Positions 19,169 through 55,744 are shown, counted from the stretch's first letter. The stretch: 64,000 nt of DNA from Cyanophyceae cyanobacterium (GCA_050331735.1 JBHJGN010000004.1:32001-96000), one strand, 5' to 3'. Numbers and translations: made by a program. The notes: generated by a model not told the origin, from the letters alone.

Positions 19169-19191
19169 CATATAATAATCGAGTTCGATTA

Positions 19192-37010: not shown

Positions 37011-37227
37011 CCTGCACCTCTAATGTCGTAATCATCACTTCTTTGGTTAAAAGAGCCAATTTTTCTTCTTTTGATAAAGTTTCCAGGTAGAGTTCGACGG
37101 CTTCTGTAATGTTGACTTTGACCTCTTCTAAAGAATCTCCTTGACTTTGACAGCCTGCTAATTCAGGACAGTAAGCATAATACCCCTGTTCATCTTTCTC
37201 AATGACGATGTGAAGTTTGTCAGACAT
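37003..37227 (-). CDS. hicB: HicB family antitoxin (short form)
   Basis: IVIEKDEQGYYAYCPELAGCQSQGDSLEE..NITEAVELYLE. Confidence 0.9.
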   Translation of the reverse strand: MSDKLHIVIEKDEQGYYAYCPELAGCQSQGDSLEEVKVNITEAVELYLETLSKEEKLALLTKEVMITTLEVQVA

Positions 37228-37240
37228 CTTCAGTTTGCTC

Positions 37241-38275
37241 CTAGTGCCACCGCAGCAGGTTTAAGCAATCGTTGGCGGTTTCCTCAACAATAGCAGTCAC
37301 AAATTCGCGGGCATCGGTGGTGCGGCAGATTGAATCGACCTGAGTCCGACACAGAGCGATCGCACTCTGACCCGGTTTTGAGGGTCTGGAGGATTCGGGA
37401 AGCGTTGCCAGCTCTAGCGTGGTCCCAATTGTAAACAGCATCGGAGCGTTGAGGAGTCGCTGTGGGGGCAGGGAGCGAATTTCGAGGAGGGCAGCCGTCA
37501 GAGCGCGATCGCTCTTTGACATGGCTGACCAAGCATGGTCTAGTAAATCGGCTAGGCTAAAAAAGCTCTGGGGAAGCTGTTGGCTCATCGAGAGCAGCTT
37601 GTTAATCAGCAGCGATCGAAACCGGTGAGTATCGCCGGTTTCCAGCTCATAAACAGCCACCGCACTGCTAAACACCTCTCTCGCCAGCAGCACCACCTGA
37701 ACGGCCCACGGCAGGTTAGTATAGCTTTGTCCGGCAGTCCATGCCGTCACAATCTGAGCCAAATCTTCGTTGGCCGCCACGCGCACTTCCAACTGTCTCA
37801 CTCGCGCTTCTAGCTGATTGAGGCGATCGCCCACCTGCTGCGCGAGACAATTGAGCTGTTGAGCGAGCAAACTAACGGCCTCCTGGTGGTCTTGAGAGAG
37901 CTGCCGATACCGCCGGATGGCGTTGCGCGCTTCGAGCAAGGATTGTTGCGTCACTTCTAGCGCCACTTGGCTAATGCGCAGTGAATCGCTCAGTTCTAAA
38001 ACCCATTGTCTGAGGGCTTCTTGACCAGCAATTAAATTCCCGTTGAGCAGCAGTTGGCGAGAGCGATCGCTTCCGTCTAGGCTGGACATCAATTGACCAA
38101 AATAGCCCAAACTTTTCCGATAGCGAATCACGTCGTTGCTGACCTGAATGCCGTTGACAATATTGACCAGTGCCCGATCGCCAACAATCGGAATCCGCTG
38201 CTGTAATTCTGCTAAATATCCCGTCGAATGGCTAACAACGTTGATCGGACTGCTGTGACTGAATTCTAAATTCAT
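37241..38275 (-). CDS. YjcZ/RdcB-like protein
   Basis: Coiled coil plus LAQIVTAWTAGQSY, recalling E. coli YjcZ; directly downstream of a CrfC-like dynamin as in E. coli. Confidence 0.6.
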   Translation of the reverse strand: MNLEFSHSSPINVVSHSTGYLAELQQRIPIVGDRALVNIVNGIQVSNDVIRYRKSLGYFGQLMSSLDGSDRSRQLLLNGNLIAGQEALRQWVLELSDSLRISQVALEVTQQSLLEARNAIRRYRQLSQDHQEAVSLLAQQLNCLAQQVGDRLNQLEARVRQLEVRVAANEDLAQIVTAWTAGQSYTNLPWAVQVVLLAREVFSSAVAVYELETGDTHRFRSLLINKLLSMSQQLPQSFFSLADLLDHAWSAMSKSDRALTAALLEIRSLPPQRLLNAPMLFTIGTTLELATLPESSRPSKPGQSAIALCRTQVDSICRTTDAREFVTAIVEETANDCLNLLRWH

Positions 38276-38278
38276 GGC

Positions 38279-40624: not shown

Positions 40625-41076
40625 GACGCAGATCCCAAGTTGTCAGCTCCAGTGTGGCATTTCTCCGAGAACCGAGTCATCGGTGAAAACCGAGGAGGCG
40701 ATCTTTGAGCTTACTGAGTGAATGCCGGGAACTTTGGGAGATGGGCTGCGTCTTTCGAGGCAGCCCTTTCTCCAGCAGTAAGGTTTCTGTACTAACAACT
40801 ACTGCCTGAGTTGCTCGCCCAAATTTTTCAGTGCATTGTCTGAGGCCCAATACTGCACAGAAGCGCTAGGGTGTTGTCTACCTAGCTTGAGCAACAACGG
40901 TCAGAAATTCGGTCATAAATTCCTTAGAAACGACCAGAAGGTACTGACATTCGCCAAGGACCGTGCCAAGATTGCTGTTAGGTAAAGTAATATAAAGCTA
41001 ACTTTTTCGTCGTTCTCTAGAGCCTTAGCTCCGGGAACCTCGTCTCCAGCAGACAACCGGACCACTACTTCCCGAG

Positions 41077-42909
41077 ATGAAGATGACTCAAAGCCGCGAG
41101 CCGTTATCGGCAGACGTTCAATACTCTACCTTGGTAGAGCTGCTGCGTGGAAGGGCGCGGCACCAGAGCGAGCGTCATGCCTATACCTTTTTAATCGACG
41201 GTAAAAAAGCGAGCGCTCCGCTGACCTACGGAGAACTCGACCGTCAAGCCCGAGCGATCGCTGCTCACCTCCAGCAGCATCAAGCTCAAGGAGAACGGGC
41301 GCTGCTGCTGTATCCGCAAGGCTTAGAAATGGTGGCGGCGTTTTGTGGCTGTCTCTATACTGGAGCGATCGCCATTCCCGTTCCGCCCCCGGAGTCCGGC
41401 AGACTGAAGCGGACGCTCCCGCGGCTGCGCTCGATCGTCAAAGATGCCCAAGCCACCTTTGCGCTGACGACAGGGCGAATTCTCTCTCTCGTCGAGAATG
41501 TCCGCGACGAATTTCCCGAATTTGACCAGATGCGCTGGCTAGATACCGAGCAGCTCGACCTCACGCTAGCCGAGCAGTGGCAGGAGCCGCCCTTAGACAA
41601 AGACACGCTCGCTTACCTGCAATACACCTCTGGCTCCACCTCGACGCCGAAAGGAGTGATGCTCAGCCACTTCAATTTGATGCATCACGCGGCCTATCTC
41701 CAAAAAGCCTGTGGCTACGAACCAGAGAGCGTCACGACCTGCTGGATGCCCTACTTCCACGATTATGGACTGGTAGAAGGAATAATGGTGCCGCTCTACA
41801 ACGGGACTCCGTGCTATTTGATGTCTCCTTTCTCCTTTATCAAGCGTCCGGTACAGTGGCTCCGCAATATTACCCACTTTGGAGTCACCCACTCTCAAGC
41901 CCCCAACTTTGCCTACGACCAGTGCGTACGACGAGTTAAGCCCAAGCAGCTAGCCGAACTCAACCTGAGCGGCTGGCAAGCGGCGGGTAACGCGGCTGAG
42001 CCGATTAATCCGAAGGTGATGGAGCAATTTGTCGAAACCTTTGCTCCCTGCGGCTTTTCGTGGTCAGCCTTTGCTCCAGCCTATGGACTGGCTGAATTTA
42101 CTCTGCTGGTGTCCTCTAAGCCGAAAGGACAAACGCCAGTCCTGCTCAACGTTGATGCCGCCGCCATCGAACGCGACAAAATTGTTTCGGTGTCTGCCGA
42201 GGAGGGGCGCACGATTGCTGGCTGCGGTCATCTGGTGGGCAATACGCAAGTGGCAATTGTTCATCCTGACTCCCACCGACGCTGTGCTGAAGATGAAGTG
42301 GGAGAAATTTGGGTGTCAGACCCGAGCGTTACCCAGGGTTACTGGCAGCGCCCCGAAGAAACGGCCCGGACTTTCCAGGCCATGATTAAAGATACTGGGG
42401 AAGGACCGTTTCTGCGTACTGGCGACCTCGGATTTCTTAAAGATGGAGAACTGTTTATTACCGGACGCATCAAAGACCTGATTATTATTCGGGGAACGAA
42501 CCATTACCCCCAAGATATTGAGTGGACGGTTCAGAATCTCCATTCTGCCCTGCGTCCGGATTACGGAGCCGCCTTTTCTATTCAGGACCGCGGCGCAGAA
42601 CAGCTAGTTGTGGTCCAGGAAGTAGAGCGCCGCGCCGAAAACATTGAGGCCGATCAGCTCATTGCCGATATTCGCCAAGAAATTGCCGAACAGCACGAAC
42701 TCCAGGTATACGCCGTGGTGTTAGCTAAACCGGGCAATATCCTCAAAACGGCGAGCGGCAAAATTCAGCGTCGGGCCTGTCGTCACAATTTTCTCACCGG
42801 ACAGCTCACGGCGATCGCCGACTGGTGCGAAAATCCGCAGCTAAGCGCTAAATTTCGGACTCTACAAGGAGAAGTCGAGTCTTTGGCGCAACAAGTTATC
42901 GGCACATAG
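41077..42909 (+). CDS. Fatty acyl-AMP ligase (FAAL)
   Basis: YLQYTSGSTSTPKG, FHDYGL, YGLAE, FLRTGDLGF, NHYPQDIE, KTASGKIQR. Confidence 0.9.
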   Translation: MKMTQSREPLSADVQYSTLVELLRGRARHQSERHAYTFLIDGKKASAPLTYGELDRQARAIAAHLQQHQAQGERALLLYPQGLEMVAAFCGCLYTGAIAIPVPPPESGRLKRTLPRLRSIVKDAQATFALTTGRILSLVENVRDEFPEFDQMRWLDTEQLDLTLAEQWQEPPLDKDTLAYLQYTSGSTSTPKGVMLSHFNLMHHAAYLQKACGYEPESVTTCWMPYFHDYGLVEGIMVPLYNGTPCYLMSPFSFIKRPVQWLRNITHFGVTHSQAPNFAYDQCVRRVKPKQLAELNLSGWQAAGNAAEPINPKVMEQFVETFAPCGFSWSAFAPAYGLAEFTLLVSSKPKGQTPVLLNVDAAAIERDKIVSVSAEEGRTIAGCGHLVGNTQVAIVHPDSHRRCAEDEVGEIWVSDPSVTQGYWQRPEETARTFQAMIKDTGEGPFLRTGDLGFLKDGELFITGRIKDLIIIRGTNHYPQDIEWTVQNLHSALRPDYGAAFSIQDRGAEQLVVVQEVERRAENIEADQLIADIRQEIAEQHELQVYAVVLAKPGNILKTASGKIQRRACRHNFLTGQLTAIADWCENPQLSAKFRTLQGEVESLAQQVIGT

Positions 42910-43042
42910 GTGTCCGACGACGAGACTGCCGCTGACTCCTAGGAAAACTGCTAAGATAGTGGCTAATTTAAGGGAATTTTCTCCTTCCAAAATCTGCTTG
43001 CTCTAGGGGTCACTCATCCAGACGTTTGTTGAAGAAATCATT

Positions 43043-44836
43043 ATGCATAAACTGAAGCAATACTGGGTAGCCGAAACGCTCGAAAAAGATTTAGGCAGCC
43101 CCAACAATCCAGACAGCGTCATGTCTTTTAAAAGAGTCGTCGAACTCGACGAGCGCGAGGAGTTTCCCGAACAAGAAATCAACTGGCTCTACAACTGGAA
43201 ACTGCACCACTACTACATCCCGACCAACTGTGGTGGTGAGTTTACCTCGTTTGAGGAATTTGTGGCGTTTGTGCGCGTCCTCTGTCGCCGGGATCAAAAC
43301 ATTGGCATTGCCTTTACCACCATGTTTTGGTCGTTCTTAACCTGGATGGGAGGAACCGACGAACAGAAGCAGCAGCTTGCTCAGTATCTGAAGGACCACA
43401 ACGGGACTCTCTGCTTGGGGTATTCCGAAAGAGAACACGGCAGCGATTTAGTCGGAGGAAGCGTCACGGCCACTCCTGTTGCTGGCGGCTATCTGCTCAA
43501 CGGAGAAAAATGGCCCATCAACCGCGCTACCCTTTCTGGTGTTTCTTACGTCCTGGCTCGTACCGGCAATCTAGGAGAAGCAAAGAGCCTATCGCTTTTT
43601 GCTGTGGATAAAAGCAAGATTAATGCTTCCCAATACTATAATCTTCCCAAAATTAAGACTCACGGAATTCGCGGGGCCGATATGAGCGGCATCGGCTTCA
43701 AAAATTGTTTCGTCCCCGAATCGATGCGCCTGCAAAAAGAAGGAGACGGGTTAGAGCTAGCCCTCAAAGGATTCCAAATTACTCGCACTCTTTGCGCGGC
43801 GTTCTCCCTAGGGGCTGCCGATACCGCGCTCAGGACCACGCTCAACTTTGCCCGACACCGCATCGTCTACAACAAGACAGTATTTGAGCTACCGCAGCCT
43901 CGTCAAACTCTGGTAAACGCCTTTCTCGATATTCTCATTGGAGATTGTGAAACGATCGGGGCAGCGCGGGGATTTCATGTGGTTCCTGAACAGTTTAGCG
44001 TCTGGGCATCGGTTGTCAAATACCTGGTAACTACCCGATTAGAAACGGCCATCAACGACGTATACCCGGTGTTAGGCTCGCGTTTCTACATGCGGGAAGA
44101 ACATAACTGGGGAATTTTCCAAAAGGTCTTGCGCGATAACTCCATCATCAGTATGTTTGACGGCAGTACCGTGGTCAATCTACACGCTCTGATTCTACAG
44201 TTCCGCCAAATCACTAAGTACCGCTCCCGCCGCAAAGCCAACACCCTCGCTGAAATTGGTTCTCGCTTGGAGACCATCTTCTCGCTGGAGCAGTCAGTGC
44301 CCTCCTTTGCGCCTGAGAAGCTAGCGCTTTTCGGTCGCGGTGCTGACGATCCGCTTCAGGGACTAGAAATTGCCCTAGAACAGCTACAGGCTCTTGAATC
44401 CAAGGTTGATAGCGGAGTGTTAGAGAAGCTCCTGTCTCTGGGTAATCTAGTGCTGGAAGAATTGAACGCTCACGATGACCGAATTGCCAACTCCAAGTTT
44501 GAGTTTGGTCACGCTCAGTCTCCAGAATTGTTTGAAATTGCGAAGCAGTACTGTACGCTGCATGCAGCGGCCTGCTGTCTGCATATGTGGCTTTACAACC
44601 GCCACATCTTGGGAGACTTTTTTGCTCAAGGAGAATGGCTCGTCCTCAGTCTACACAGGCTGCTGCGCACCGTAAGACCTCTACCCTATGTGATCGCTCA
44701 AGCCTACGTAGAGAATGTCGCTCAAGAGCTACTCAAGCTGCACCGCGAGGAACGAGCGTTTTCGATTGTTCCTTTTCAACTGGCCTCGTCGTCAGCTCAG
44801 GAATCCCCCGTTTCAGAGCTACAGCTCCAAGCCTAA
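43043..44836 (+). CDS. Acyl-CoA/acyl-ACP dehydrogenase
   Basis: GYSEREHGSD, LNGEKWPIN, THGIRGAD, MFDGSTVVN. Confidence 0.85.
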   Translation: MHKLKQYWVAETLEKDLGSPNNPDSVMSFKRVVELDEREEFPEQEINWLYNWKLHHYYIPTNCGGEFTSFEEFVAFVRVLCRRDQNIGIAFTTMFWSFLTWMGGTDEQKQQLAQYLKDHNGTLCLGYSEREHGSDLVGGSVTATPVAGGYLLNGEKWPINRATLSGVSYVLARTGNLGEAKSLSLFAVDKSKINASQYYNLPKIKTHGIRGADMSGIGFKNCFVPESMRLQKEGDGLELALKGFQITRTLCAAFSLGAADTALRTTLNFARHRIVYNKTVFELPQPRQTLVNAFLDILIGDCETIGAARGFHVVPEQFSVWASVVKYLVTTRLETAINDVYPVLGSRFYMREEHNWGIFQKVLRDNSIISMFDGSTVVNLHALILQFRQITKYRSRRKANTLAEIGSRLETIFSLEQSVPSFAPEKLALFGRGADDPLQGLEIALEQLQALESKVDSGVLEKLLSLGNLVLEELNAHDDRIANSKFEFGHAQSPELFEIAKQYCTLHAAACCLHMWLYNRHILGDFFAQGEWLVLSLHRLLRTVRPLPYVIAQAYVENVAQELLKLHREERAFSIVPFQLASSSAQESPVSELQLQA

Positions 44837-44864
44837 TTTGTTCACCCTACCAGACCAGCTTATA

Positions 44865-45209
44865 ATGACTCCTGTAGAAACTATTCAGAATTGGCTCGTC
44901 AATCAGCTTGCCGAGCAGCTTTCTTTGGACGCTAATGCGATTAGCACCACAGAGCCGCTGACTCGCTATGGACTCGACTCCATTGACGCTGTCACTATCG
45001 TCGGCGACTTAGAAGACTGGCTAGATATGGAGCTTCCCTCAACTTTATTTTGGGATCATCCAACGATTGCTCAATCCTCTCAGTTTCTAGCCGATAATTA
45101 CGATGTTGCCGGAGCACTAAACAGTGAGCCCCAAAGCGACGCAGCAGACCCCGAACCAGTGACCAGCGGCAAGGGTTGGGGTGGATTATTTGGTCGCTTC
45201 GGCTCTTAA
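44865..45209 (+). CDS. Acyl carrier protein with C-terminal extension
   Basis: YGLDSIDAV phosphopantetheine site, LFWDHPTI; ATG at 44865. Confidence 0.9.
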   Translation: MTPVETIQNWLVNQLAEQLSLDANAISTTEPLTRYGLDSIDAVTIVGDLEDWLDMELPSTLFWDHPTIAQSSQFLADNYDVAGALNSEPQSDAADPEPVTSGKGWGGLFGRFGS

Positions 45210-45275
45210 AAAACAGCCAGTCGTTGGGGGAGAATCGCTCCCCAACCAAACAGTACTCCCTCCTCAGTTCAGACC

Positions 45276-46736
45276 TTGAATTACTCGGACTTTTCTTTTT
45301 GGTGGATACTGCTCCTCTTTTGCGTTCCGTTCTTTACGGTACGCACCGTTGCTAGATCGGTTAATCTGTGGCCGGGGTTTTTCGATGCCTTGGGGCTGAT
45401 GGCTCTGTCGCTGCTCCTCTTCTTCAACGCCAGCCGTGCTAGCTTCGTTGTTTTTATTTTCGAGGTGGTTTTTAACTACGTAATGGTGGCGCTGATGCAG
45501 CGCACTCGCGGTTGGCAAGCCAAGCTGTTTGCGGGGGTCATCATTACGATTGACATTGCTATTCTGGCGTACTTTAAGTATCTAGCCTTCTTTGTTGAAG
45601 ATGTTTTTGGGATACTAGCGGGGGGGGTTGCCGACAACTGGGATCGCAGTTTGCCGATTCCGGTCTATAGCCATATTCCTCCAGGGGTGTCTTTCTACAC
45701 CTTTCAGATGGTGGCCTTTGTCGTTGATTCTCTCACAGCCCGCAAGAAACGCCCGATCGGCTTTGTTGACTATATCAACTTTGTCGCCTTCTTCCCCCAA
45801 ATTGTGGCCGGACCCATTGAGCGGCGCACGAACTTGTTTCCCCAAATTGAATCGTTTCGCTTCAAAGCCACTTTGGAAAATTTCGATGTTGGCCTGCGGT
45901 GGCTGTCTTTGGGGTTATTTATGAAGTTTGTGCTGGCCGACAATCTGTTTCCCTACATTGATTTAACCACTGTCGAAAATGCTTGGGGAGTCTGGTTCAA
46001 CGCGTTTATCTTTACTCTCAGAATTTATTTCGACTTTGCTGGCTATAGCTTTATTGCCCTGGGAATCGCTCGCTTTCTGGGTGTACGCCTGACAGTCAAC
46101 TTTTTAGCACCCTATACCAGCCCGAGCATTAACGAATTTTGGCGGCGATGGCACATTACCCTGAGCACCTGGTTTAGGGATTACGTGTTTCTCCCGCTGA
46201 TGGGATCTCGGAAAAAACTAGCGCCTTTCTTCCTCTTTATTACGTTCACGCTGTCGGGTTTTTGGCACGGAGCTGCCTGGAACTTTATCATCTGGGGAGC
46301 CTATCATGGCGCTCTGCTGCTCGTGCTGCGCTATCTAGGCAGACCCTTCCATAAAGTGGTGGGTCAACACATTGCCCGACCTCAGTTTATCTCTTGGGGA
46401 TTGACCTTTGGCTCTGTCGTACTCGGCTGCCTGTTCTTTATGGATACCGATATCGGTCGTTTACTCCTCAAGCTGAGAACGTTAGTGACTCCCTGGGCTT
46501 ATTCTCTGTCTAATTTAGGAGAATTTTTCGGCTCCTACAGCGTCAACGAAGGAGCGGCTCTGCTACTGATTTTGGCCCTCTCCGGTCTCGTGCTGCTGAT
46601 GGAACATATTGCCGTTTGGCAGCGGAAGTTTGAATACGAACTCTTGCTTTCCCCTTGGGTATCGCCCGTGCTGCTAGGGCTAACACTACTATTAGCGGCC
46701 AATACTCCTTCTGAATTTATCTACTTCGAGTTCTGA
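45276..46736 (+). CDS. MBOAT O-acyltransferase (AlgI/DltB-like)
   Basis: GVSFYTFQ, FFPQIVAGPIER, YFDFAGYS, EFWRRWHITLS, GFWHGA; ends FIYFEF. Confidence 0.92.
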   Translation: MNYSDFSFWWILLLFCVPFFTVRTVARSVNLWPGFFDALGLMALSLLLFFNASRASFVVFIFEVVFNYVMVALMQRTRGWQAKLFAGVIITIDIAILAYFKYLAFFVEDVFGILAGGVADNWDRSLPIPVYSHIPPGVSFYTFQMVAFVVDSLTARKKRPIGFVDYINFVAFFPQIVAGPIERRTNLFPQIESFRFKATLENFDVGLRWLSLGLFMKFVLADNLFPYIDLTTVENAWGVWFNAFIFTLRIYFDFAGYSFIALGIARFLGVRLTVNFLAPYTSPSINEFWRRWHITLSTWFRDYVFLPLMGSRKKLAPFFLFITFTLSGFWHGAAWNFIIWGAYHGALLLVLRYLGRPFHKVVGQHIARPQFISWGLTFGSVVLGCLFFMDTDIGRLLLKLRTLVTPWAYSLSNLGEFFGSYSVNEGAALLLILALSGLVLLMEHIAVWQRKFEYELLLSPWVSPVLLGLTLLLAANTPSEFIYFEF

Positions 46737-47668
46737 TGAAATTTAAGTTAGTTCCTTGGTTTGTAGCGGCAGGGGTAGCCTGGTCGTTGGGCTACGCCTA
46801 TAACGTCTACTACGGCGGCGAACTGAGCTGGCTGCGGGCGATGTACGAGCAGAAACTGGCGATCGCCGCCGCCACCGAAGCTCCCCAACGACTGCTGATT
46901 ACTGGCGGTTCGGGAGCCCACTATACCCTCGACTCCGAACTGATTGAGCAGCAGTTGGGCATTCCCGTAATTAATTTGGGCATCGACGGTCCTGTGGGGC
47001 TGAACGTGATTCTGCCCAGCGTTCTCGACCAGGTGCGTCCGGGTGACGTGGTGCTGCTGATTCCGGAGTATTTAATTTTGCTGGATGAGGACGGTTTAGG
47101 CGATCGCTCTGGTCCCTTTAGCTTGGCCATTCATCGACCCGGCTTAGGGGGCGTTCCTCCGAAGCAGTTAGCCCAGGACATTATGCTGCTGGGAGTGCCG
47201 ACGCTGCGCTCTGTCGCAAAATCTGCCATGGATTTGGTTCGGGATGGTGAATTATCCGGGTACTATTCCGATCCCCTCACCGAACGAGGCGATCCGACGA
47301 CCGTCAATACTCGTACGGGAGAGTGGTGGCAATTGCAGATTAGTCAATCCATTTCCCCACACGCCGCGAACAGAATCGCTCAATTTCAGGAAGAAGTCGC
47401 GGCACGGGGCGGAACCCTGGTGCTGTCTTTGCCCTGGGTTTACGCTCAGGCCGACCAAGAAACCCTCACCAACGTACAGAAGACCGCCGAACAGCTAGAG
47501 GGAATTGCGCCCACCATCTACGATCCCTCCTCACTCAACATCAAGACAGACTCTAGCCTGTTTGCCGATACTCACTATCACCTCCTCCCAGAAGCTCGCC
47601 GAATTCGTGCTCGGGAATTAGCAGCTCAGCTACAGCCCGTCCTAAAAACAATTAACAATGACCAGTGA
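46736..47668 (+). CDS. Membrane-anchored SGNH-like protein (DltD/AlgJ-like MBOAT partner)
   Basis: N-terminal anchor, ITGGS, INLG, C-terminal DTHYHL; TGA/ATG overlap with the MBOAT gene. Confidence 0.6.
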   Translation: MKFKLVPWFVAAGVAWSLGYAYNVYYGGELSWLRAMYEQKLAIAAATEAPQRLLITGGSGAHYTLDSELIEQQLGIPVINLGIDGPVGLNVILPSVLDQVRPGDVVLLIPEYLILLDEDGLGDRSGPFSLAIHRPGLGGVPPKQLAQDIMLLGVPTLRSVAKSAMDLVRDGELSGYYSDPLTERGDPTTVNTRTGEWWQLQISQSISPHAANRIAQFQEEVAARGGTLVLSLPWVYAQADQETLTNVQKTAEQLEGIAPTIYDPSSLNIKTDSSLFADTHYHLLPEARRIRARELAAQLQPVLKTINNDQ

Positions 47669-48815
47669 ACGATGTCATATCTGTGTTCTTGGTGGCGGCT
47701 TCGGTGGTCTCTACACGGCTCTCTATTTCAGCCACTTTTCTCGGGTAAAATCGGGAAAATGCCAAGTTACCCTGGTTGAAAAAAACGATCGCTTTCTGTT
47801 TACGCCTCTCCTGTATGAGCTGCTCACGCAAGAACTACAGCGCTGGGAAATTGCTCCTTCCTACTACAAGCTGCTGGCCCGGACCAAAATTAAGCTCTGT
47901 CAACAGACGATTGAGGACGTAGATCTCAAAGCTCGTCGGGTTCGACTAGCAGAGGGGCACCTAACTTACGACTATCTGGTTCTGGCCGTCGGCAACCAAA
48001 CTCAGTATGCTCAGATTCCCGGTGTCGTTGAACATACCCTGCCATTTCGGACTCTCGCGGATGCCGAACTTTTAGATCAGCGGCTTCAGCTTTTAGAAGC
48101 TACCCAACGACAGCGCCTGCGCGTTGCCATCGTTGGCGGTGGCCCCAGCGGAGTGGAACTGGCCTGCAAGCTCGCTGACCGTCTTCACAAACGGGGTCAA
48201 ATCTCTCTGCTCGACCGGGGGGAGCAGTTGCTCAAGCCCTATAACCAAGCCATTCGAGCAGCGGCAGAGCGATCGCTTCATCAGCGCCGGGTGCAGGTGA
48301 GTCTCAATACCACCGTCAAAACCATTACAGCAGAGCACATTACTCTTGTTCAAGATGAACAAATCCAAACCGTTCCGGTAGACCTGGTGCTGTGGACGGC
48401 AGGAACGAAGATTAGAGACTGGGTGCAGAAACTCGAGTGTCAGCACAACGAGCGCGGCCAGGTTCTAACGAGGCCAACTCTACAGCTAGTAGATTACCCG
48501 GAAGTGCTAGCGCTGGGAGATCTGGCCGAGTGCCAGAGCAAACAAGCACCGACGACGGCTCAAGTCGCGTATCAGCAGGCCAGCCGCGCTGCTAAAAACC
48601 TCAAAGCAATTGTGAAAGGGCAACGTTTGCGTACTTTTCACTATCTTCACTTAGGAGATATGTTAACTCTAGGCAAGGGGGCGGCCATTGTTTCTAGTTT
48701 TTCGATTAATATTACTGGCTCTTTCGGTGCTCTGCTCAGACGATTAATTTACGTTCAGCGCCTCCCGACGTGGCGACATCGATTACAGGTGTTGAAACGT
48801 TTGTTGGTCGGTTAA
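47658..48815 (+). CDS. NAD(P)/FAD-dependent oxidoreductase, type II NADH dehydrogenase (NdbB-like)
   Basis: GGGFGGL, FTPLLYE, GGGPSGVELA, GD...TAQVAYQQ. Confidence 0.85.
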   Translation: MTSERCHICVLGGGFGGLYTALYFSHFSRVKSGKCQVTLVEKNDRFLFTPLLYELLTQELQRWEIAPSYYKLLARTKIKLCQQTIEDVDLKARRVRLAEGHLTYDYLVLAVGNQTQYAQIPGVVEHTLPFRTLADAELLDQRLQLLEATQRQRLRVAIVGGGPSGVELACKLADRLHKRGQISLLDRGEQLLKPYNQAIRAAAERSLHQRRVQVSLNTTVKTITAEHITLVQDEQIQTVPVDLVLWTAGTKIRDWVQKLECQHNERGQVLTRPTLQLVDYPEVLALGDLAECQSKQAPTTAQVAYQQASRAAKNLKAIVKGQRLRTFHYLHLGDMLTLGKGAAIVSSFSINITGSFGALLRRLIYVQRLPTWRHRLQVLKRLLVG

Positions 48816-48913
48816 CCGGACGCTGCGTTTCGACGGCAGGCTGGGTAAACTAGTTGGCAAGGCAGAATTGCCCAGGCTTCAGTAAAGAGCATAAAATTAA
48901 GGACCACAGAGCA

Positions 48914-50731
48914 ATGTTATTGAAGGAAAACAAGCTAGAGGAGGTTTTCGGCCTAGATTTACGGTCTTTGGGTCTATTTCGTATCGGTCTCGCCTTAGTG
49001 GTAATAGCAGATTTGAGTATCCGAGCTGGAGAGCTAACGGCTCACTATTCAGATGCAGGTGTGCTGCCTCGCGCCACGCTCATTAACGAAATTTTACCCT
49101 CTGGCTACTGGTCAATTAACTTAATTAGTGGCTCACCGCTGGTTCAGGCCCTGCTGTTTGGTATCGCGCTTTTGGTCGCGGTCGTGCTGCTGGTAGGCTA
49201 TCGGACTCGACTGGCGACGATCGCCACTTGGGCAATGCTTGTTTCGATTCACAACCGGAACCCGGCTCTCATTTTCGCTGCCGACGACGTGCTGCGAGCG
49301 ATGCTGTTTTGGTCGATGTTTTTGCCGTTAGGAGCGAGCTACTCGCTCGACAGTGCCCTCAACTCTTCTACCAAGCCGCTGCCTAAACGGGTGCTTTCCG
49401 TGGCGACGGTGGCTTTTATTGTCCAAATTTGCTACATTTACATATTTTCTGCCGCCTTTAAAACCCACAGCCCGCTGTGGTCTGGTGGAGAAGCAGTTTA
49501 CTATTCGTTTCAGTTTGACCAATACGGAACGCCTTTAGGGCAATTTCTGCTCAACTTTCCGGGGTTACTGAAGCTGTTTACATTCTTCGCTTTGTGGTTG
49601 GAATGGCTCGGCCCGCTGCTGCTGTTTATTCCCTTCCGCACGAGCCTTTGGCGCTGCGTGACAATTGTGTTGTTTGTCCTGCTTCACGTCAGCTTTGGAC
49701 TCTGCTTTCGATTAGGCATTTTCCCGTTTCTCAGCACTTTTAGCTGGCTCGCCTTGATTCCGAGTTCGGTCTGGGACGGGCTCAGAGCGCGAATTGCTGA
49801 CTCCCGCCGTAGCGGACTGAGAATTTACTACGATGCCGAGTGTGGCTTCTGTAAAAAGGTAGTTTATCTGATTCGGACGTTTCTAATCCTGCCCGGAACT
49901 CCGCTATTGCTGGCACAGAGCGAGCCGTCGATCTATGCCGATATGCAGGAGAAAAATTCCTGGGTCGTGGTGGACTGGCAAGAACACCGACACTATAAAT
50001 GGGAGGCGATCGCCTACGTGTGTAGTTTGTCTCCTCTCCTCTGGTTTCTCTCTCCGATCCTGCGGTGGAAACCACTAATGGCTATAGGCACCAAAATCTA
50101 TGAAACCATCGCCTCTAACCGCCGATTCATGGGCAAGTTTACCGCGCCGCTCAAGTGGAAACCGCTCGAAGTCCGTCCTCGCCTCTGGTTCAACCTCATT
50201 ACTTTCGCTCTGCTGCTCTACGTAACGATTTGGAACTTTAGAAGCCTAGCTCTTAGCATTCTCCCGCGCGACCATCTGGTGCATCAAACTTTCAGAAGAA
50301 GAACCTTTAATACCCTTAACTGGTTTGGGAAAGTGACTCGCCTCGATCAGTCCTGGAGTATTTTTGCGCCTAACCCTCCCCGAGATGATGGCTGGTATGT
50401 CGTGCGCGGTATCCTCGATAACGGTCGTGAAGTTGATATTCTCAGCGGGGAATCTCCTAACTACGATAAGCCAACCCTGCGCCAGCGTAACGCGCTCTAT
50501 CGCAACATGCAGTGGCGCACGTACTTCATTAACTTGAATCGAGCGATTGGGCAGAAACTATATGCTGACTATGGCGCTTACCTTTGCCGTCACTGGAACA
50601 GTCAGCATAGCGAACAGCTTAACACCATAGAAGTTTATTTTATGGATGAAACAACGGTACCGCCCGGTGAAACCCAAACGGTTACCAAACGAACAACCTG
50701 GGAGCAAACTTGCCCAAGTAGCGAGGAGTAG
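48914..50731 (+). CDS. HTTM-domain membrane protein with an inserted DCC1-like thiol-disulfide domain
   Basis: DLRSLGLFRI..HNRNP..LPLG..SLD HTTM features; YDAECGFC; LDQSWSIFAP. Confidence 0.75.
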   Translation: MLLKENKLEEVFGLDLRSLGLFRIGLALVVIADLSIRAGELTAHYSDAGVLPRATLINEILPSGYWSINLISGSPLVQALLFGIALLVAVVLLVGYRTRLATIATWAMLVSIHNRNPALIFAADDVLRAMLFWSMFLPLGASYSLDSALNSSTKPLPKRVLSVATVAFIVQICYIYIFSAAFKTHSPLWSGGEAVYYSFQFDQYGTPLGQFLLNFPGLLKLFTFFALWLEWLGPLLLFIPFRTSLWRCVTIVLFVLLHVSFGLCFRLGIFPFLSTFSWLALIPSSVWDGLRARIADSRRSGLRIYYDAECGFCKKVVYLIRTFLILPGTPLLLAQSEPSIYADMQEKNSWVVVDWQEHRHYKWEAIAYVCSLSPLLWFLSPILRWKPLMAIGTKIYETIASNRRFMGKFTAPLKWKPLEVRPRLWFNLITFALLLYVTIWNFRSLALSILPRDHLVHQTFRRRTFNTLNWFGKVTRLDQSWSIFAPNPPRDDGWYVVRGILDNGREVDILSGESPNYDKPTLRQRNALYRNMQWRTYFINLNRAIGQKLYADYGAYLCRHWNSQHSEQLNTIEVYFMDETTVPPGETQTVTKRTTWEQTCPSSEE

Positions 50732-50802
50732 AAGCCTGCGCGTCACCGTCATTTTCTGACCTTCATCAAGCCACAATAACGCTCGGCTGAACCGATATCA
50801 AA

Positions 50803-52494
50803 ATGAGCCGCCCCCCACTCGAGACCCCCCCCACTCGCCGTCATCAACGACTGATAGTTAAGGCGGCTTTCTGGCTAATAGCAATAGCCCTCGGGTTTCT
50901 ACAGGCTTGGAATAGCCGCTATAGCTTGTCCACAGGAGATGCCGTTTCTTACCTCGATCTTGGCAAAGCGTATCTTCAAGGAGATTGGGATGCGGCGGTG
51001 ACTTCCTATTTTGCTCCTCTGTACCCAATCTTTTTGGCTAGCTTTCAGGCGCTCCTCAGTCCTTCGAGCTTCTGGGAATTTTTTGTTGTCAAACTGACTA
51101 ACCTATTTATTTTGGCACTTAGTCTTGTTTGTTTTGATAGATTTCTCCACGAATTTATTATTTACTACAACAGTCACCGAACAACTGACAAAGAGCGTTG
51201 GCTCATTCCATCGTGGCTTTGGATAGTCGCTGGCTACATTTTATTTATTTGGTCAGCGACTCAATGGATAGGCGTTGATACCGATAGTCCCGATTTGTTG
51301 ATGTCGGCAACAATCTATCTAGCGATGGCCATTGTGCTCAGGATTAGCCGCTCTGAGCAGTGGACCAGTTTTATTTTGTTAGGGGTCGTGTTAGGACTTG
51401 GGTACTTAACTAAATCCTTTATGTTTCCAATGGCGTTTATTTTTTTGGGAGTTTCCTTCTTTTCAACTCAGAAAAATTTCCGGTCAGCGGCTAAAATTGC
51501 CGTGGCTTTTTTGGCTTTTGTCACGATCTCGTGCCCCTATATTTACGCCATTTCCTCTTTTGAAGGCGAGTTCACTTTTGGATCAAGTGGGCAGTTGAAC
51601 TACGCTTGGAACGTCAGTCCTGGAGGAATACACAATCATTATTGGCAAGGAGAACCGGCAGGAAGTGGGATACCAAAGCATCCAATTAGACAGGTTTTCG
51701 ATCAGCCGACGGTTTACGAATTTGGAGAACCGATTGGGGGAACGTATCCACCTTGGCACAATCCTGCTTACTGGAACGCTGGTTTGCAGACCACGTTTAA
51801 CTTGAGGAAGCAAATACACGTTCTCTGGGTCCACGCGCTAGAGTATTACCGCATCTTTTTTGGGGTTTTACTGTTTGGGTATTTGATTTTTGTGGCGGTA
51901 ACCGATAGTTGGAACGTTGCCGTCAAAAACTTGCTCAGAAACTGGATACTGCTTATTCCAGCTTGTGCTGGCTTAGGAAGCTTTATGTTAGTGCACGTCA
52001 GGGCAAGATACAGTGCTGCCCTCATTGTTATTTTGTTTGCGGCATTTTTTGGCAGCGTTTATCCTCCTAACGTCAAAGCCGTAAAACGCTTTACTGTTAC
52101 TGCTGTGCTGAGCATGACGCTACTGATTTGGCCTCAATTTGCTACCGCAGCAAAGAGTGCAGGAGAACCGCTTCAGTGGAAAATTGCCAACGGACTAAAT
52201 CAGCTAGGAATCGAGTCTGGAGAGCGAGTCGCTATTCTCGGTGGCTATAAGGTTGGCAGCAATTACTACTGGGCAAAACTAGCAGATCTCAAAATTGTGG
52301 CGGAAATTCCTAGCATCGAGGAGTTTTGGGAGGCGGATGACGCTACTCGCCAGAGAGTTTACGATACGTTAACAAGGACTGGAGCAAAAATTCTTGTTCA
52401 AGAACCCGGACAAGATTCCCCTCTCAAGTATTTGGAGACAGATGACTGGCAGAAAATTGACAATACGAAGTCCTATGTCCGTTTTTTACGGTGA
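50803..52494 (+). CDS. Polytopic membrane protein, probable GT-C (ArnT/PMT-like) glycosyltransferase
   Basis: GDAVSYLD after TM1, PLYP, LGLGYLTK, many TM helices. Confidence 0.55.
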   Translation: MSRPPLETPPTRRHQRLIVKAAFWLIAIALGFLQAWNSRYSLSTGDAVSYLDLGKAYLQGDWDAAVTSYFAPLYPIFLASFQALLSPSSFWEFFVVKLTNLFILALSLVCFDRFLHEFIIYYNSHRTTDKERWLIPSWLWIVAGYILFIWSATQWIGVDTDSPDLLMSATIYLAMAIVLRISRSEQWTSFILLGVVLGLGYLTKSFMFPMAFIFLGVSFFSTQKNFRSAAKIAVAFLAFVTISCPYIYAISSFEGEFTFGSSGQLNYAWNVSPGGIHNHYWQGEPAGSGIPKHPIRQVFDQPTVYEFGEPIGGTYPPWHNPAYWNAGLQTTFNLRKQIHVLWVHALEYYRIFFGVLLFGYLIFVAVTDSWNVAVKNLLRNWILLIPACAGLGSFMLVHVRARYSAALIVILFAAFFGSVYPPNVKAVKRFTVTAVLSMTLLIWPQFATAAKSAGEPLQWKIANGLNQLGIESGERVAILGGYKVGSNYYWAKLADLKIVAEIPSIEEFWEADDATRQRVYDTLTRTGAKILVQEPGQDSPLKYLETDDWQKIDNTKSYVRFLR

Positions 52495-52509
52495 GCTGAA
52501 ATTGAGCTT

Positions 52510-52552
52510 GCTCAAAGCAGCCGCCGGAAGAGGTTACGGCGGAACTTTGAGC
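52510..52552. other. Intergenic stem-loop
   Basis: gctcaaag..ccgccg / cggcgg..ctttgagc. Confidence 0.45.
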
Positions 52553-52704: not shown

Positions 52705-54186
52705 ATGCTATTTAACTCCTACATATTTATTTTCTGCTTTTTGCCAATTACGTTAACCATCTTTTTTTGTCTAGCTCGATTTCGCCAGCTTCAGGCTGCT
52801 AAAGTGTGGTTAACTATAAGTTCCTTATTCTTCTACGGCTATTGGAATATTAGCTATTTACCGCTGCTAGTAGGATCGATTATTTTTAATCATCAAATCG
52901 GTCACAGAATTGCTTTGACTAAACCAGAAAGTCGTCAAGCAAAAGCATTGCTGTGGATAGGAATTTGCGTTAATTTAGCCGCGATCGCCTACTACAAATA
53001 CGCTAACTTTTTTCTCACTTCCGTCAACGTCGTTGCGAACACTCGCCTAGCTTTACCAACAATTATTCTCCCGCTGGCAATTTCCTTCTACACCTTTACT
53101 CAAATTGCTTATTTGGTAGATGCCTATCGAGGCGAAACCAAAACGGCCAACTACGACCTCCTTACCTATAGCTTATTTGTGGTCTTTTTCCCTCAGCTAA
53201 TTGCGGGGCCGATTCTGCGCCATGACGAACTCATCCCGCAGTTTCGTCAACTACGAAATTTTATTTTTTCCCATAAAAATTTTGCTCTCGGACTCACTTT
53301 ATTTAGCTTGGGCCTAGCTAAAAAAGTACTGATCGCCGATATTCTATCGCCTTGGGTAGCTCTCGTTTTCGATCATGCAGAAGCCGTGACTTTTATTGAA
53401 GCCTGGGTAGGCGCTTTTAGCTATACTTTTCAGCTTTATTTTGACTTTTCTGGCTACTCAGACATGGCAATCGGCTTAGGGTTAATCTTTAATATTCATC
53501 TGCCGATCAATTTCGATTCTCCCTACAAAGCCAGCTCAATTATCGATTTTTGGCGACGCTGGCATATTACGCTCTCCAATTTTTTGCGAGATTACCTGTA
53601 CATTCCTCTTGGAGGAAGTCGCCAAGGAGAACTACGGCGCTACCTCAACCTCTTGACCACCATGCTACTAGGAGGACTTTGGCACGGTGCTGGCTGGACG
53701 TTTGTTATTTGGGGAGGACTGCATGGCGTTTATCTCTCGCTCAATCACTGGTGGCGCAAGCAAAAGATTCCGCTCCCGAACCTGCTCGGATGGGCGATTA
53801 CATTTGGGGCTGTTATGGTGAGCTGGGTATTATTTCGCGCGTACAGTCTGCAAGAGGGGGTAGCAATTTTACTGGCAATGTTTGGAGCGAAGGGAGTTGT
53901 GTTGCCTGGAGAACCTAGCGGGAAGCTTGCCTTTCTGACCCTATTTGGCGTTCGGCTTCAGCGATGGGCAGAACTAAACTATCTGCCCACGTTATATGAT
54001 AGTAAAGCTTTGGGTATGCTAGCCCTAGCCACGTTGACGGGGTGCGTAACGCTATTGCCCAATACTCAGCAAATTCTGCAAAAGCTGAAGCCAACATGGT
54101 GGTGGGCGTTAGGAATTGGAGCGATCGCTGGGTGTAGCTTACTCTCTCTCAACCGCGTGTCTGAGTTTCTCTATTTCCAGTTTTAA
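52705..54186 (+). CDS. MBOAT O-acyltransferase (AlgI-like)
   Basis: MLFNSYIFIFCFLP, ISFYTFTQIAY, FPQLIAGPI, DFSGYSDMA, FWRRWHITLS, GGLWHGA; ends FLYFQF. Confidence 0.93.
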   Translation: MLFNSYIFIFCFLPITLTIFFCLARFRQLQAAKVWLTISSLFFYGYWNISYLPLLVGSIIFNHQIGHRIALTKPESRQAKALLWIGICVNLAAIAYYKYANFFLTSVNVVANTRLALPTIILPLAISFYTFTQIAYLVDAYRGETKTANYDLLTYSLFVVFFPQLIAGPILRHDELIPQFRQLRNFIFSHKNFALGLTLFSLGLAKKVLIADILSPWVALVFDHAEAVTFIEAWVGAFSYTFQLYFDFSGYSDMAIGLGLIFNIHLPINFDSPYKASSIIDFWRRWHITLSNFLRDYLYIPLGGSRQGELRRYLNLLTTMLLGGLWHGAGWTFVIWGGLHGVYLSLNHWWRKQKIPLPNLLGWAITFGAVMVSWVLFRAYSLQEGVAILLAMFGAKGVVLPGEPSGKLAFLTLFGVRLQRWAELNYLPTLYDSKALGMLALATLTGCVTLLPNTQQILQKLKPTWWWALGIGAIAGCSLLSLNRVSEFLYFQF

Positions 54187-54560: not shown

Positions 54561-54571
54561 TCTTAAGCAGC

Positions 54572-55744
54572 ATGAGTACATTCTCTAATTCGTTTCGTTC
54601 TCATCAAGCTCCCGTTACTAAAAGGCAGTACCAAAAATTTAATCTTTGGCTGCTGGGAGCTGTGTCTGCTCCCATCGTGTCTATCGGCTTTTTCAATTTT
54701 GTTGTCGATCCCTACGATATTTTTCCCACTCCTGAACTCGGTATTAATCACGCTAAGCCCAAAAAAGGCAACAACGACCGCGTTCATAAAGCCGTTGACG
54801 TTATCCGTCTGCGACCAACAGTTGTCTTCGTTGGCTCATCAAGAACTAAACTCGGCTTAGATCCGAGTCATGCTGTCTGGGAAAACGCTGAAGAAGTTTA
54901 CAATTTGGGACTCAATGGGCCTAATTTTTACGAACAGCTTCGCTACTTAGAGCATGCGATCGCTAATCAAGAGAACCTAGAAGCCGTTGTCGTTGGGCTA
55001 GATTTTTTTGCTTTTAACCAGCACTTAGACAATCAGCCCACTTTCTCCGAGCATCGGTTGGAGAAGCAGCATCTCACCATCCGAGACTTTGTTAACTTTA
55101 CCGCTTCCCTCGATGTCCTGTCTGCGAGCTATGCTACTCTTCAAGAGAGTTTAAAGACTCCTAAGCGAGACGACTACGGCCAGGACGGCTTTACTCCAGA
55201 CCGCTACGAAGGCGACCCGGGATGGAAATTTAGAGAAGGATTAAAGCTATATTTTCAACTGCATGGCAACTATGAGCTATCCGAGAAGTACATGGATAGC
55301 CTCAGAACCCTGGTAGCAATCTGTCAGCAAAAAGAAATTCCGCTCTACCTGTTTATTTCTCCGGCCCATGCAACGCAGTGGGAGGCCATTCGAGCGACCG
55401 GACGCTGGCAGACTTTTGAGCAGTGGAAACGAGAAGTGGCCGCCATTGCTCCGGTTTGGGATTTCTCTGGGTACAGTAGCGTCACGACGGAACCAGTCAA
55501 TAGCCAGAGCAAAAACTATACAGATAACTCCCACTATACGCCTCTTGTTGGAGATTTAGTGCTTAATCGAATGTTTTCGGTAAACGAGCAGTCAGTTCCC
55601 CAAGATTTTGGAGTGTTGCTAACTTCAGAAAATCTTGAGTCTCAGTTAGCACAAATCCGTCAAAACCGCCAAGAATGGGCCAAACAAAATCCTGAAGTCG
55701 TTGAACTCGTCCAGAAACTACAGCAGGAAATTAAACAAGAGTAG
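54572..55744 (+). CDS. Membrane-anchored SGNH-like protein (MBOAT partner)
   Basis: N-terminal TM then NFVVDPY; VGSSR, YNLG, DNSHY. Confidence 0.65.
   Translation: MSTFSNSFRSHQAPVTKRQYQKFNLWLLGAVSAPIVSIGFFNFVVDPYDIFPTPELGINHAKPKKGNNDRVHKAVDVIRLRPTVVFVGSSRTKLGLDPSHAVWENAEEVYNLGLNGPNFYEQLRYLEHAIANQENLEAVVVGLDFFAFNQHLDNQPTFSEHRLEKQHLTIRDFVNFTASLDVLSASYATLQESLKTPKRDDYGQDGFTPDRYEGDPGWKFREGLKLYFQLHGNYELSEKYMDSLRTLVAICQQKEIPLYLFISPAHATQWEAIRATGRWQTFEQWKREVAAIAPVWDFSGYSSVTTEPVNSQSKNYTDNSHYTPLVGDLVLNRMFSVNEQSVPQDFGVLLTSENLESQLAQIRQNRQEWAKQNPEVVELVQKLQQEIKQE

Follow-up and report, generated by a model that had tools for sequence, protein, structure and literature searches.

How might a fatty acid that has been activated and loaded onto a carrier protein in the cytoplasm reach a target outside the cell membrane? 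This question is raised by a locus of a Cyanophyceae cyanobacterium, located on the plus strand at 41077-55744 of the 64-kb stretch of DNA analyzed here (the window), in which genes for fatty acid activation are followed directly by those for a membrane-bound O-acyltransferase (MBOAT) plus an SGNH-like partner. In bacteria, MBOAT-SGNH relays put acetyl or d-alanyl groups on surface polymers. A reading made from the DNA before any search (the sequence-only reading) had described the first five genes of the locus as a Dlt-like module that uses a fatty acid. After the analysis described below, we think it rather probable that the cassette encodes a carrier-protein-fed MBOAT-SGNH relay, by which a fatty acyl group would pass from the cytoplasm to an acceptor beyond the inner membrane; judged from the gene context, this acceptor is probably an envelope glycan or glycolipid. 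By its sequence features, the cassette is better filed as a variant of the MBOAT-SGNH pairs in which the acyl-shuttle motif is fused to the MBOAT than as a member of Dlt.

By open reading frame (ORF) calling, ten tightly packed plus-strand genes run from 41077 to 55744, and the five genes of the sequence-only reading (41077-47668) are all on that strand. The features on which the argument turns are as follows.

41077..42909, + strand: probable fatty acyl-AMP ligase (FAAL), 610 aa; Pfam AMP-binding, E 5e-65
43043..44836, + strand: acyl-CoA dehydrogenase (ACAD)-superfamily flavoprotein, 597 aa; Pfam Acyl-CoA_dh M, C, and N domains
44865..45209, + strand: dedicated acyl carrier protein (ACP), 114 aa from ATG 44865; PP-binding, E 4e-15
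45276..46736, + strand: MBOAT1, 486 aa, TTG start; Pfam MBOAT, E 5.6e-25
46716..46733, + strand: hexapeptide FIYFEF at the C-terminus of MBOAT1 (F-x-Y-x-x-F acyl-shuttle motif), read from the sequence
46736..47668, + strand: SGNH1, predicted SGNH-fold partner, 310 aa, N-terminal membrane helix; AlphaFold2 model and Foldseek
47658..48815, + strand: NDH-2-like flavoprotein (family of type II NAD(P)H:quinone oxidoreductases), 385 aa; Pyr_redox_2, E 2.5e-46
48914..50731, + strand: membrane protein of predicted GGCX fold (HTTM) with an inserted DCC1/thioredoxin-like CxxC domain (GGCX-like), 605 aa; DCC1-like, E 4e-8

A longer ORF for the ACP (44715-45209) overlaps the ACAD gene, and the PP-binding domain begins at ATG 44865, so that this ATG is the likely start; the GGCX-like gene has an alternative TTG start at 48854. 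The TGA of MBOAT1 and the ATG of SGNH1 have one base in common (TTC TGATG AAA), as had been noticed at first reading, and the 3' end of SGNH1 is overlapped by 11 bases by the NDH-2-like gene (47658-48815). From these stop/start overlaps, translational coupling is predicted both for MBOAT1 with SGNH1 and for SGNH1 with the NDH-2-like gene. Because promoter and terminator scans of 40400-56200 gave sites no commoner than in shuffled sequence, the limits of the operon are set by spacing and overlaps only. For 41077-50731, no RNA data set was listed, and the single DNA data set listed may be the source itself. When the ORFs of 60 aa or longer in 41077-55744 were searched, no polyketide synthase (PKS), nonribosomal peptide synthetase (NRPS), or other family-assigned thioesterase or acyltransferase was detected, the protein PART2 (see below) being family-less, and thus the MBOAT is the sole evident exit for an ACP-bound acyl group.

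The conservation of the cassette carries most of the argument. We annotated 80 genome loci containing close relatives of SGNH1 (55-71% identity) by phmmer with the window proteins, and the counts for each neighbor take in only the loci with enough flanking sequence. The loci come from Xenococcaceae, Pleurocapsaceae, Hydrococcaceae, Coleofasciculaceae, Leptolyngbyaceae, Aphanothecaceae, and others, and the order and orientation of the cassette are kept in more than 10 cyanobacterial families. The neighbors of SGNH1 were found as follows.

FAAL, upstream of SGNH1: 41/62 loci
ACAD, upstream of SGNH1: 52/72 loci
ACP, upstream of SGNH1: 53/74 loci
MBOAT1, upstream of SGNH1: 58/76 loci
NDH-2-like gene, downstream of SGNH1: 51/76 loci
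GGCX-like gene, downstream of SGNH1: 60/66 loci
MBOAT2, downstream of SGNH1: 22/57 loci
PART2, downstream of SGNH1: 20/55 loci

The full order FAAL-ACAD-ACP-MBOAT1-SGNH1-NDH2-GGCX-like is present in 32 of the 53 loci with full flanks, and five more lack the NDH-2-like gene only. The FAAL, ACAD, and ACP triad lies ahead of MBOAT1 in 41 of the 48 loci that have MBOAT1 and at least 6.1 kb of upstream sequence, and three further loci have ACAD and ACP with a split or truncated FAAL; none of the 14 loci without MBOAT1 has FAAL, ACAD, or ACP. The co-conservation on which the sequence-only reading depended was therefore borne out by this synteny analysis. Its limit of five genes was too narrow, because the NDH-2-like and GGCX-like genes are conserved as well, the latter also behind SGNH1 copies that lack an MBOAT. 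Both downstream genes are absent from two loci (L048 and L076), and SGNH1 stands alone in another (L034). In two Phormidesmis loci (L060 and L062, about 3760-6140), FAAL is divided into two or three ORFs in cassettes that are otherwise complete, possibly through frameshifts or assembly errors.

Co-occurrence in whole genomes gave a similar picture. Of the 401 cyanobacterial genomes in the sample, 21 (from 15 of 156 genera) contain SGNH1 and 21 contain this ACAD, with both present in 20; these numbers are descriptive and carry no test, since related genomes are non-independent. Cassettes that have come apart are also informative. In one genome (G150), ACAD-ACP lies 160 kb from MBOAT1-SGNH1-NDH2; in a second (G228), ACAD-ACP-MBOAT1-NDH2 and GGCX-like-SGNH1 are separated by 52 kb; and at a third locus (L071) the genes are still together despite an inversion. 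The genes of these broken cassettes thus stay in the same genome, which points in the same direction as the linkage. An explanation to be considered here is that two independent systems are mere neighbors, MBOAT1-SGNH1 being an ordinary acetyl-CoA-dependent glycan O-acetyltransferase and FAAL-ACAD-ACP producing a lipid or natural product that is finished elsewhere. We consider this quite unlikely, given that the triad is confined, among the loci compared, to those with MBOAT1, that 20 of 21 genomes have ACAD and SGNH1 together, that order and orientation are kept across so many families, and that the cassette contains no other enzyme for offloading an acyl-ACP. The MBOAT1 sequences themselves, described next, also speak against it, and the points in its favor are taken up with the distant relatives of the pair and with the broken cassettes below.

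The C-terminus of MBOAT1 reads ...SEFIYFEF*, which confirms the ending FIYFEF recognized by the sequence-only reading, and F.Y..F closes all 60 MBOAT1 orthologues in which the end was compared (FIYFEF in 56 and FIYFDF in 4). His293, in the motif RWH(I/V)(T/S)L, is invariant in 61/61 MBOAT1 sequences. The DltB model TIGR04091 scores 180.2 bits on MBOAT1 vs a cut-off of 375. We aligned the 61 MBOAT1 orthologues with 24 orthologues of MBOAT2, the second MBOAT of the locus, and with 54 MBOATs from metagenomes. A core consisting of R291-W-H293 and F481/Y483/F484/F486 is common to all three groups, whereas 13 columns hold an invariant residue peculiar to MBOAT1 at positions where MBOAT2 and the metagenome MBOATs agree. 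In particular, the changes include K to M216, R to M389, W to C385, D to F259, and Q to R249. Such substitutions, confined to the MBOAT1 clade at columns conserved elsewhere, weigh against an ordinary acetyltransferase beside an unrelated lipid system. In the available text of PMC12148441, the acyl-CoA pocket of PatA is described as lined by conserved Arg residues. The loss of two conserved basic residues in MBOAT1 (at M216 and M389) would fit a changed donor, and we take it as a lead only.

The same text provides the mechanistic frame for the pair. PatA auto-acetylates the Tyr of its own C-terminal FXYXXF from acetyl-CoA, and PatB, an SGNH protein, receives the acetyl group from this Tyr; in Dlt, the same relay operates with a carrier protein and the microprotein DltX (PMC12148441, as far as available). 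According to that source, the fused-motif MBOATs take acyl-CoA as the donor, and a carrier protein is used in Dlt only.

SGNH1 is the least recognizable member of the pair at the level of sequence. It gave no match to Pfam or NCBIfam even at E<=10, and a search of its profile (A2) against solved structures by sequence found no match. The G-x-S and D-x-x-x-H motifs assigned to the partner at first reading are present as GGSGAH (Ser59) and FADTHYHL (Asp278 and His282). Among 44 family representatives reaching down to 22% identity, G58, S59, D104, G185, and H282 are invariant and D278 is conserved in at least 90%; a Ser59/His282/Asp278 triad is therefore likely. An AlphaFold2 model built from an alignment of 26 orthologues has a mean pLDDT of 90. 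In a Foldseek search of the PDB with this model, SGNH esterases were at the top (rhamnogalacturonan acetylesterase, E 6e-5), while DltD and PatB stood lower in the list (E 4-5e-3; DltD chains at ranks 20 and 26, E 4-6e-3). By VIA, residues ~50-305 match natural SGNH hydrolases with Z 13.2-13.3, including the GDSL lipase 3p94 (root-mean-square deviation (rmsd) 3.6, 178 aligned) and TesA 1u8u (rmsd 3.2, 160 aligned). The predicted structure thus makes an SGNH fold clear, and this part of the sequence-only reading holds. A hydrophobic helix occupies the N-terminus (model residues 6-26), with Lys2 and Lys4 ahead of it, and by this arrangement and by analogy to DltD and PatB, the catalytic domain would face outward.

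Because the closest solved folds include TesA, PAF acetylhydrolase, and carbohydrate esterases, with DltD and PatB lower by Foldseek, it might be asked whether SGNH1 is a periplasmic esterase or lipase that reverses or edits an MBOAT-linked acylation. Fold alone, however, cannot separate SGNH transferases from hydrolases, and SGNH1 is encoded behind an FxYxxF MBOAT with a stop/start overlap, the position of transferases of the PatB, AlgJ, and DltD type. We regard a hydrolase as very improbable.

The relatives of SGNH1 extend far beyond the cyanobacterial cassette, with 2208 representative clusters at E<=0.001 (HMMER, whole library). The longer relatives (566-728 aa) have no extra recognizable Pfam domain, except for P0132 of the representative library (624 aa), in which the C-terminal two thirds of an SGNH1-like protein and an NDH-2-like protein are in one frame; this may be a genuine fusion, or the gene caller may have read across the 11-base overlap. 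A search with alignment A3 gave 80 metagenome loci with distant relatives (22-40% identity to the seed). An MBOAT lies immediately upstream on the same strand in 65 of them; in 14 of the remaining 15, the contig stops within ~850 bases, and one locus alone (L137) has room yet lacks an MBOAT. F-x-Y-x-x-F terminates all 54 full-length MBOATs from these loci. For ten distant relatives, a cluster look-up yielded hardly any names or taxa. On this sequence evidence, the SGNH1 family appears to be a general MBOAT companion. Homologues of the window FAAL, ACAD, ACP, or GGCX-like protein were found by phmmer in 0/80 of the distant loci, and a Pfam search of the 67 flanking proteins of 13 such loci found PP-binding or AMP-binding proteins in 0/13 and glycosyltransferase or sugar-nucleotide genes in 7/13. 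The MBOAT companionship, the lack of carrier and adenylating genes, and the glycosyltransferase context of these loci indicate that the ancestral role of the pair was the familiar acylation of polysaccharides. The absence of the carrier and adenylating genes from these loci favors the explanation by two independent systems, as does the acyl-CoA donor reported for fused-motif MBOATs in the accessible part of PMC12148441.

The relay that we prefer depends on the nature of the loading genes. The best NCBIfam matches of the protein encoded by 41077-42909 are fatty acid-AMP ligase subfamilies (E 4e-137, under the cut-off), and the MbtM model is among its matches (E 1e-59). Its closest solved relative is 7r7e-g, a 572-aa chain named polyketide synthase (E 2e-166), followed by 3kxw, FadD32, FadD23, and FadD28. 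The identification as FAAL is probable, in that the best NCBIfam and PDB matches are FAALs and extend over the whole length, with all NCBIfam scores under the curated cut-offs, and an ACP is encoded two genes downstream. The ACP matches best the N-terminal ACP region of Pks13 in NCBIfam (E 2.7e-12), and the D-S serine motif of its GLDSI is invariant in 55/55 sequences; by best match, the carrier is a FAAL/PKS-type ACP, and we do not equate it with a DltC orthologue. The proposal that a fatty acid is the substrate is supported to the extent that the cassette encodes no adenylating enzyme other than a FAAL and no carrier other than a FAAL-type ACP. The flavoprotein encoded between them has an ACAD core at residues ~30-380, followed by a conserved C-terminal extension of ~200 aa. 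Its closest solved relative is 5ol2_C (E 1.5e-21), with an alignment to butyryl-CoA dehydrogenase over residues 32-378, and no other ACAD of this kind was found in the same genome.

The two conserved genes downstream of SGNH1 raise the question of whether the center of the system lies elsewhere. The NDH-2-like protein resembles the two-dinucleotide-fold NDH-2 enzymes and has two GxGxxG motifs; its solved relatives are NDH-2 4nwz (E 1.9e-30, residues 7-367), the NDH-2 of S. aureus, and FSP1 (E 2e-11). The protein encoded by 48914-50731 has the DCC1-type motif YDAECGFC, and among 25 orthologues, the DCC1 Pfam domain was detected in 25 and the HTTM Pfam domain in 4. With its AlphaFold2 model (pLDDT 85), human GGCX, the vitamin K-dependent carboxylase, took every one of the Foldseek ranks 1-15 in the PDB (E 8e-6 to 1e-3), and the match after these had E 0.035 with low probability. 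VIA aligned the model with GGCX at Z 22.7 (rmsd 6.2, 383 aligned), the best unrelated chain reaching Z 7.1, and residues ~295-380 are Trx/Grx-like (Z 5-6.6). As judged from the model, the membrane domain has the GGCX fold, by a match that is both strong and specific, although no sequence-level match to GGCX or any solved structure was found even with the family profile. The family has an invariant Lys in SAAFK (K183 when numbered on the 605-aa form), which we do not equate with the catalytic Lys of GGCX. In a language-model atlas, the GGCX-like protein falls among HTTM/DCC1 and LMF1 clusters, which are widely found in several phyla. We dropped the idea that, like LMF1, which matures lipases by disulfide formation, the GGCX-like protein matures SGNH1 by forming a disulfide, because SGNH1 has zero cysteines. 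From alignments A1 and A4, a complex of SGNH1 with the GGCX-like protein was predicted with a score of 0.00 in two runs with no controls, a result that carries no weight in either direction.

The genes described next lie farther downstream in the locus and bear on what the acceptor may be.

50803..52494, + strand: GT-C-type membrane glycosyltransferase-like protein, 563 aa; PMT_2, E 2.3e-5, just under the cut-off
52705..54186, + strand: MBOAT2, 493 aa, C-terminus FLYFQF; MBOAT, E 4e-34
54572..55744, + strand: PART2 (MBOAT2 partner), 390 aa, family-less, containing GSS and D-N-S-H motifs; Pfam and NCBIfam both negative at E<=10
L003 of the same genome (G000:C64:11000-30000), about 2700-12500: paralogous block, with a sulfotransferase further on

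Homologues of the GT-C-like gene (50803-52494) lie in or beside the cassette at three loci (L005, L022, and L040), and a PMT_2 protein is encoded upstream at another (L008); its inclusion in the unit is tentative. FLYFQF terminates 23/23 MBOAT2 orthologues, and PART2 often occurs in two copies behind MBOAT2 at related loci. A PART2 profile (A5) matched no solved structure by sequence, and hhalign of SGNH1 vs PART2 gave a match of 43 columns around the nucleophile block (probability 22%), which is weak and does not show common descent. MBOAT1 and MBOAT2 of the window are the only MBOATs in the genome. On another contig of the same genome, however, a second SGNH1 (63% identity) adjoins a second GGCX-like gene (62%) with no MBOAT, together with a PART2-like gene and genes for a GT2 glycosyltransferase, a DegT aminotransferase, a 151-aa protein, and a 634-aa protein that the atlas groups with GT-C glycosyltransferases (LA_3751/RgtA/GT39-like). 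This block, which we take to resemble the Arn-type polyprenyl-phosphate aminosugar pathways, recurs in Crocosphaera and Coleofasciculus loci. In a quick tree (SH-aLRT only), 16 of 19 SGNH1 copies without an MBOAT fall in one clade of 18 rows with a support of 95. The context of the paralogous block and the GT-C-like gene of the window together suggest that the system acts on a glycan or glycolipid in the periplasm.

Such pairs could also mean that the core consists of SGNH1 and the GGCX-fold/CxxC protein acting as a periplasmic quinone-dependent carboxylase or oxidoreductase, to which MBOAT1 and the triad supply one substrate, so that the product would be a modified (e.g., carboxylated or oxidized) lipid or glycolipid and no simple ester. 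The GGCX-like gene stands behind SGNH1 in 60 of 66 cyanobacterial loci, including eight of nine without an MBOAT, the second pair lies beside GT-C-like, DegT, and GT2 genes, the GGCX fold match is strong and specific, and a quinone reductase-like gene is predicted to be translationally coupled to SGNH1. Set against this, the wider family pairs SGNH1 with an MBOAT and has no HTTM gene nearby; the NDH-2-like gene is only loosely tied, being present at 2 of the 14 loci without an MBOAT and absent from five otherwise complete cassettes; a common fold proves no chemistry; and the family profile finds no solved relative by sequence. We hold this account to be distinctly unlikely.

Other genes of the window are recorded here in their own right. 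A CsgG-like lipoprotein, a bifunctional sugar kinase/cytidylyltransferase with HldE-like domains, and a family 9 glycosyltransferase (heptosyltransferase-like) are encoded at 18015-22000, which suggests genes for the inner core of lipopolysaccharide ~20 kb upstream of the cassette. At 60787-62586 lies a second FAAL-like gene (AMP-binding with a C-terminal DIP2-like domain), and behind it comes a further AMP-binding gene that is cut off by the end of the window (62964-63998); a separate lipid or natural-product cluster may begin with these two genes. On the minus strand at 35852-40624, divergent from FAAL, are genes for a patatin-like phospholipase, a 344-aa protein with YjcZ-/perilipin-like matches, and a 781-aa dynamin-family GTPase, possibly a membrane-remodeling trio; as far as queries with window proteins reach, this trio is not conserved beside the cassette at other loci.

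For the carrier-fed relay, family membership and gene linkage suggest the following steps. FAAL would adenylate a free fatty acid and load it onto the dedicated ACP, and the ACAD-like flavoprotein would alter the ACP-bound chain, likely but not certainly by desaturation, given Asp in place of Glu. The acyl-ACP would dock at the cytoplasmic face of MBOAT1, where His293 would hand the acyl group to the Tyr of FIYFEF at the outer face. Membrane-anchored SGNH1 would then receive it on Ser59, assisted by His282 and Asp278, and pass it to the acceptor, very probably a glycan or glycolipid that might be built or decorated in the periplasm by the GT-C-like enzyme and the MBOAT2-PART2 pair. We also propose, as the weakest part of the model, that this acceptor or acyl group undergoes a redox or carboxylase-like reaction that depends on quinol and is carried out by the NDH-2-like and GGCX-fold/CxxC proteins.

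Several observations weigh against this relay. An ACP as the donor for a fused-motif MBOAT would be unprecedented, and the case for it is one of gene linkage. In four of the 48 MBOAT1 loci, the 6-10 kb upstream do not contain the triad (L008, L073, L076, and one other), and no FAAL adjoins ACAD-ACP in G150 or G228; the loci without the triad and the separability of the cassette in these two genomes both favor two independent systems. From the paralogous lineage beside the GGCX-like gene, SGNH1 may have a role that needs no adjacent MBOAT. Finally, the canonical catalytic Glu of YEGT in ACADs aligns to Asp373 of FDGS in the flavoprotein, and this Asp is invariant in 54/54 orthologues. Nitroalkane oxidase, an enzyme of the ACAD fold, has Asp at that position, and the protein may well be active. 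Because of Asp373, however, the alpha,beta-desaturation put forward by the sequence-only reading is an assumption and was not established. Of the family assignments made in that reading, ACP, MBOAT, and SGNH-like held, FAAL is probable, and the assignment of the ACAD as a dehydrogenase is uncertain.

An extended version of the relay would be an envelope machine in three parts, of a kind not known to be described in any organism, namely FAAL, ACP, and the Asp-type ACAD for loading; the relay from a fused-motif MBOAT to a new family of SGNH transferases for export; and a modification of the acyl group or its glycan acceptor at the outer side by a GGCX-like, quinol-dependent enzyme that is recharged by the NDH-2-like protein. 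The organism makes phylloquinone. Taken as a whole, this machine seems to us rather unlikely.

Comparison with known systems helps to place the cassette. It is most similar to the PatA/PatB and AlgI/AlgJ-type pairs. In both, the MBOAT has an invariant His and terminates in F-x-Y-x-x-F, the gene directly downstream encodes an SGNH-fold partner anchored in the membrane, and relatives of the pair occur in polysaccharide loci. It differs in that the PatA/PatB-type pairs use acetyl-CoA and no carrier (PMC12148441, available text), whereas the cassette keeps FAAL, ACAD-like, and ACP genes upstream; in that SGNH1 falls outside the Pfam families described for SGNH, DltD, and AlgJ proteins; and in the addition of the GGCX-fold protein and the NDH-2-like flavoprotein.

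The likeness to Dlt is one of logic, from an adenylating enzyme through a carrier, an MBOAT, the Tyr of FXYXXF, and the Ser of an SGNH protein to an extracytoplasmic acceptor, and a small carrier with a phosphopantetheine serine is present in the cassette. The Dlt pathway d-alanylates teichoic acids. In the cassette, the adenylating enzyme is a FAAL and no d-Ala ligase; the motif that is carried by the microprotein DltX in Dlt is fused to MBOAT1, and the scan, which covered ORFs of 60 aa or longer, showed no separate DltX; MBOAT1 is under the DltB cut-off (180 vs 375 bits) and SGNH1 is outside the DltD families; and an ACAD-like flavoprotein is added for the carrier-bound group in a host that is a Gram-negative-type cyanobacterium. 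Of the readings considered, the Dlt-like one has the best support, but membership in Dlt does not stand, four of five defining features having failed.

For the loading half, the nearest known logic is that of mycobactin lipidation, in which MbtM (FadD33, a FAAL), MbtL (an ACP), MbtN (an acyl-ACP dehydrogenase), and MbtK (an acyltransferase) take part. In both systems, a FAAL and an ACP are joined by an ACAD-family enzyme for the carrier-bound chain, followed by offloading by an acyltransferase. The acyltransferase for mycobactin is soluble and acts on a cytoplasmic siderophore intermediate, whereas the only candidate in the cassette is an MBOAT in the membrane, partnered by an SGNH protein in the periplasm, and the window ACAD has 597 aa with Asp at the Glu position. 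The Mbt gene names appear in the reference list of PMC5302061, the part of that paper available here.

With regard to the GGCX/HTTM enzymes, a preprint (10.64898/2026.08.19.745780), in the part available, describes bacterial proteins with HTTM and an inserted DCC1-like CxxC domain that have a neighbor with a single N-terminal helix, DUF5819. The cassette protein is alike in its membrane fold (Z 22.7), its HTTM with a DCC1-like CxxC insert, and its single-helix neighbor, but it has no sequence-level match to GGCX, and the neighbor is an SGNH protein, not DUF5819.

A further parallel lies in eukaryotes, where Porcupine, Hedgehog acyltransferase, and ghrelin O-acyltransferase are MBOATs that transfer lipids to secreted proteins. 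These enzymes use an acyl-CoA donor and acylate the acceptor directly, with no SGNH partner, FXYXXF relay, or carrier protein. As in these enzymes, the MBOAT of the cassette would move a fatty acyl group, not acetyl or d-alanyl, across the membrane, whereas its SGNH partner, FXYXXF, and carrier protein set it apart.

The sequence-only reading knew of no described cyanobacterial pathway of this form, and we likewise found no published description of such a cassette. No description of a FAAL or ACP together with an MBOAT was found in the literature covered, which does not extend to supplements and subscription journals. The text of PMC12820801 contains no occurrence of "O-acyltransferase," "acyl-CoA dehydrogenase," or "membrane," although its supplements could list such contexts.

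If the relay is as we propose, MBOAT-SGNH chemistry would extend to the fatty acylation of an extracytoplasmic target, and bacteria would have an equivalent of the animal MBOATs that transfer lipids. The relay would also explain why exopolymers of mat-forming cyanobacteria are hydrophobic and bear lipid. Because SGNH1 is so constantly paired with the GGCX-fold/CxxC protein, it offers a genetic handle on the bacterial HTTM-DCC1 proteins. Should the three-part machine prove true, its product would be a lipidated, possibly carboxylated, surface glycan; it would provide the first carrier-protein donor for a fused-motif MBOAT and the first bacterial MBOAT-SGNH relay of a long acyl chain, and a role would be assigned to these widespread proteins.

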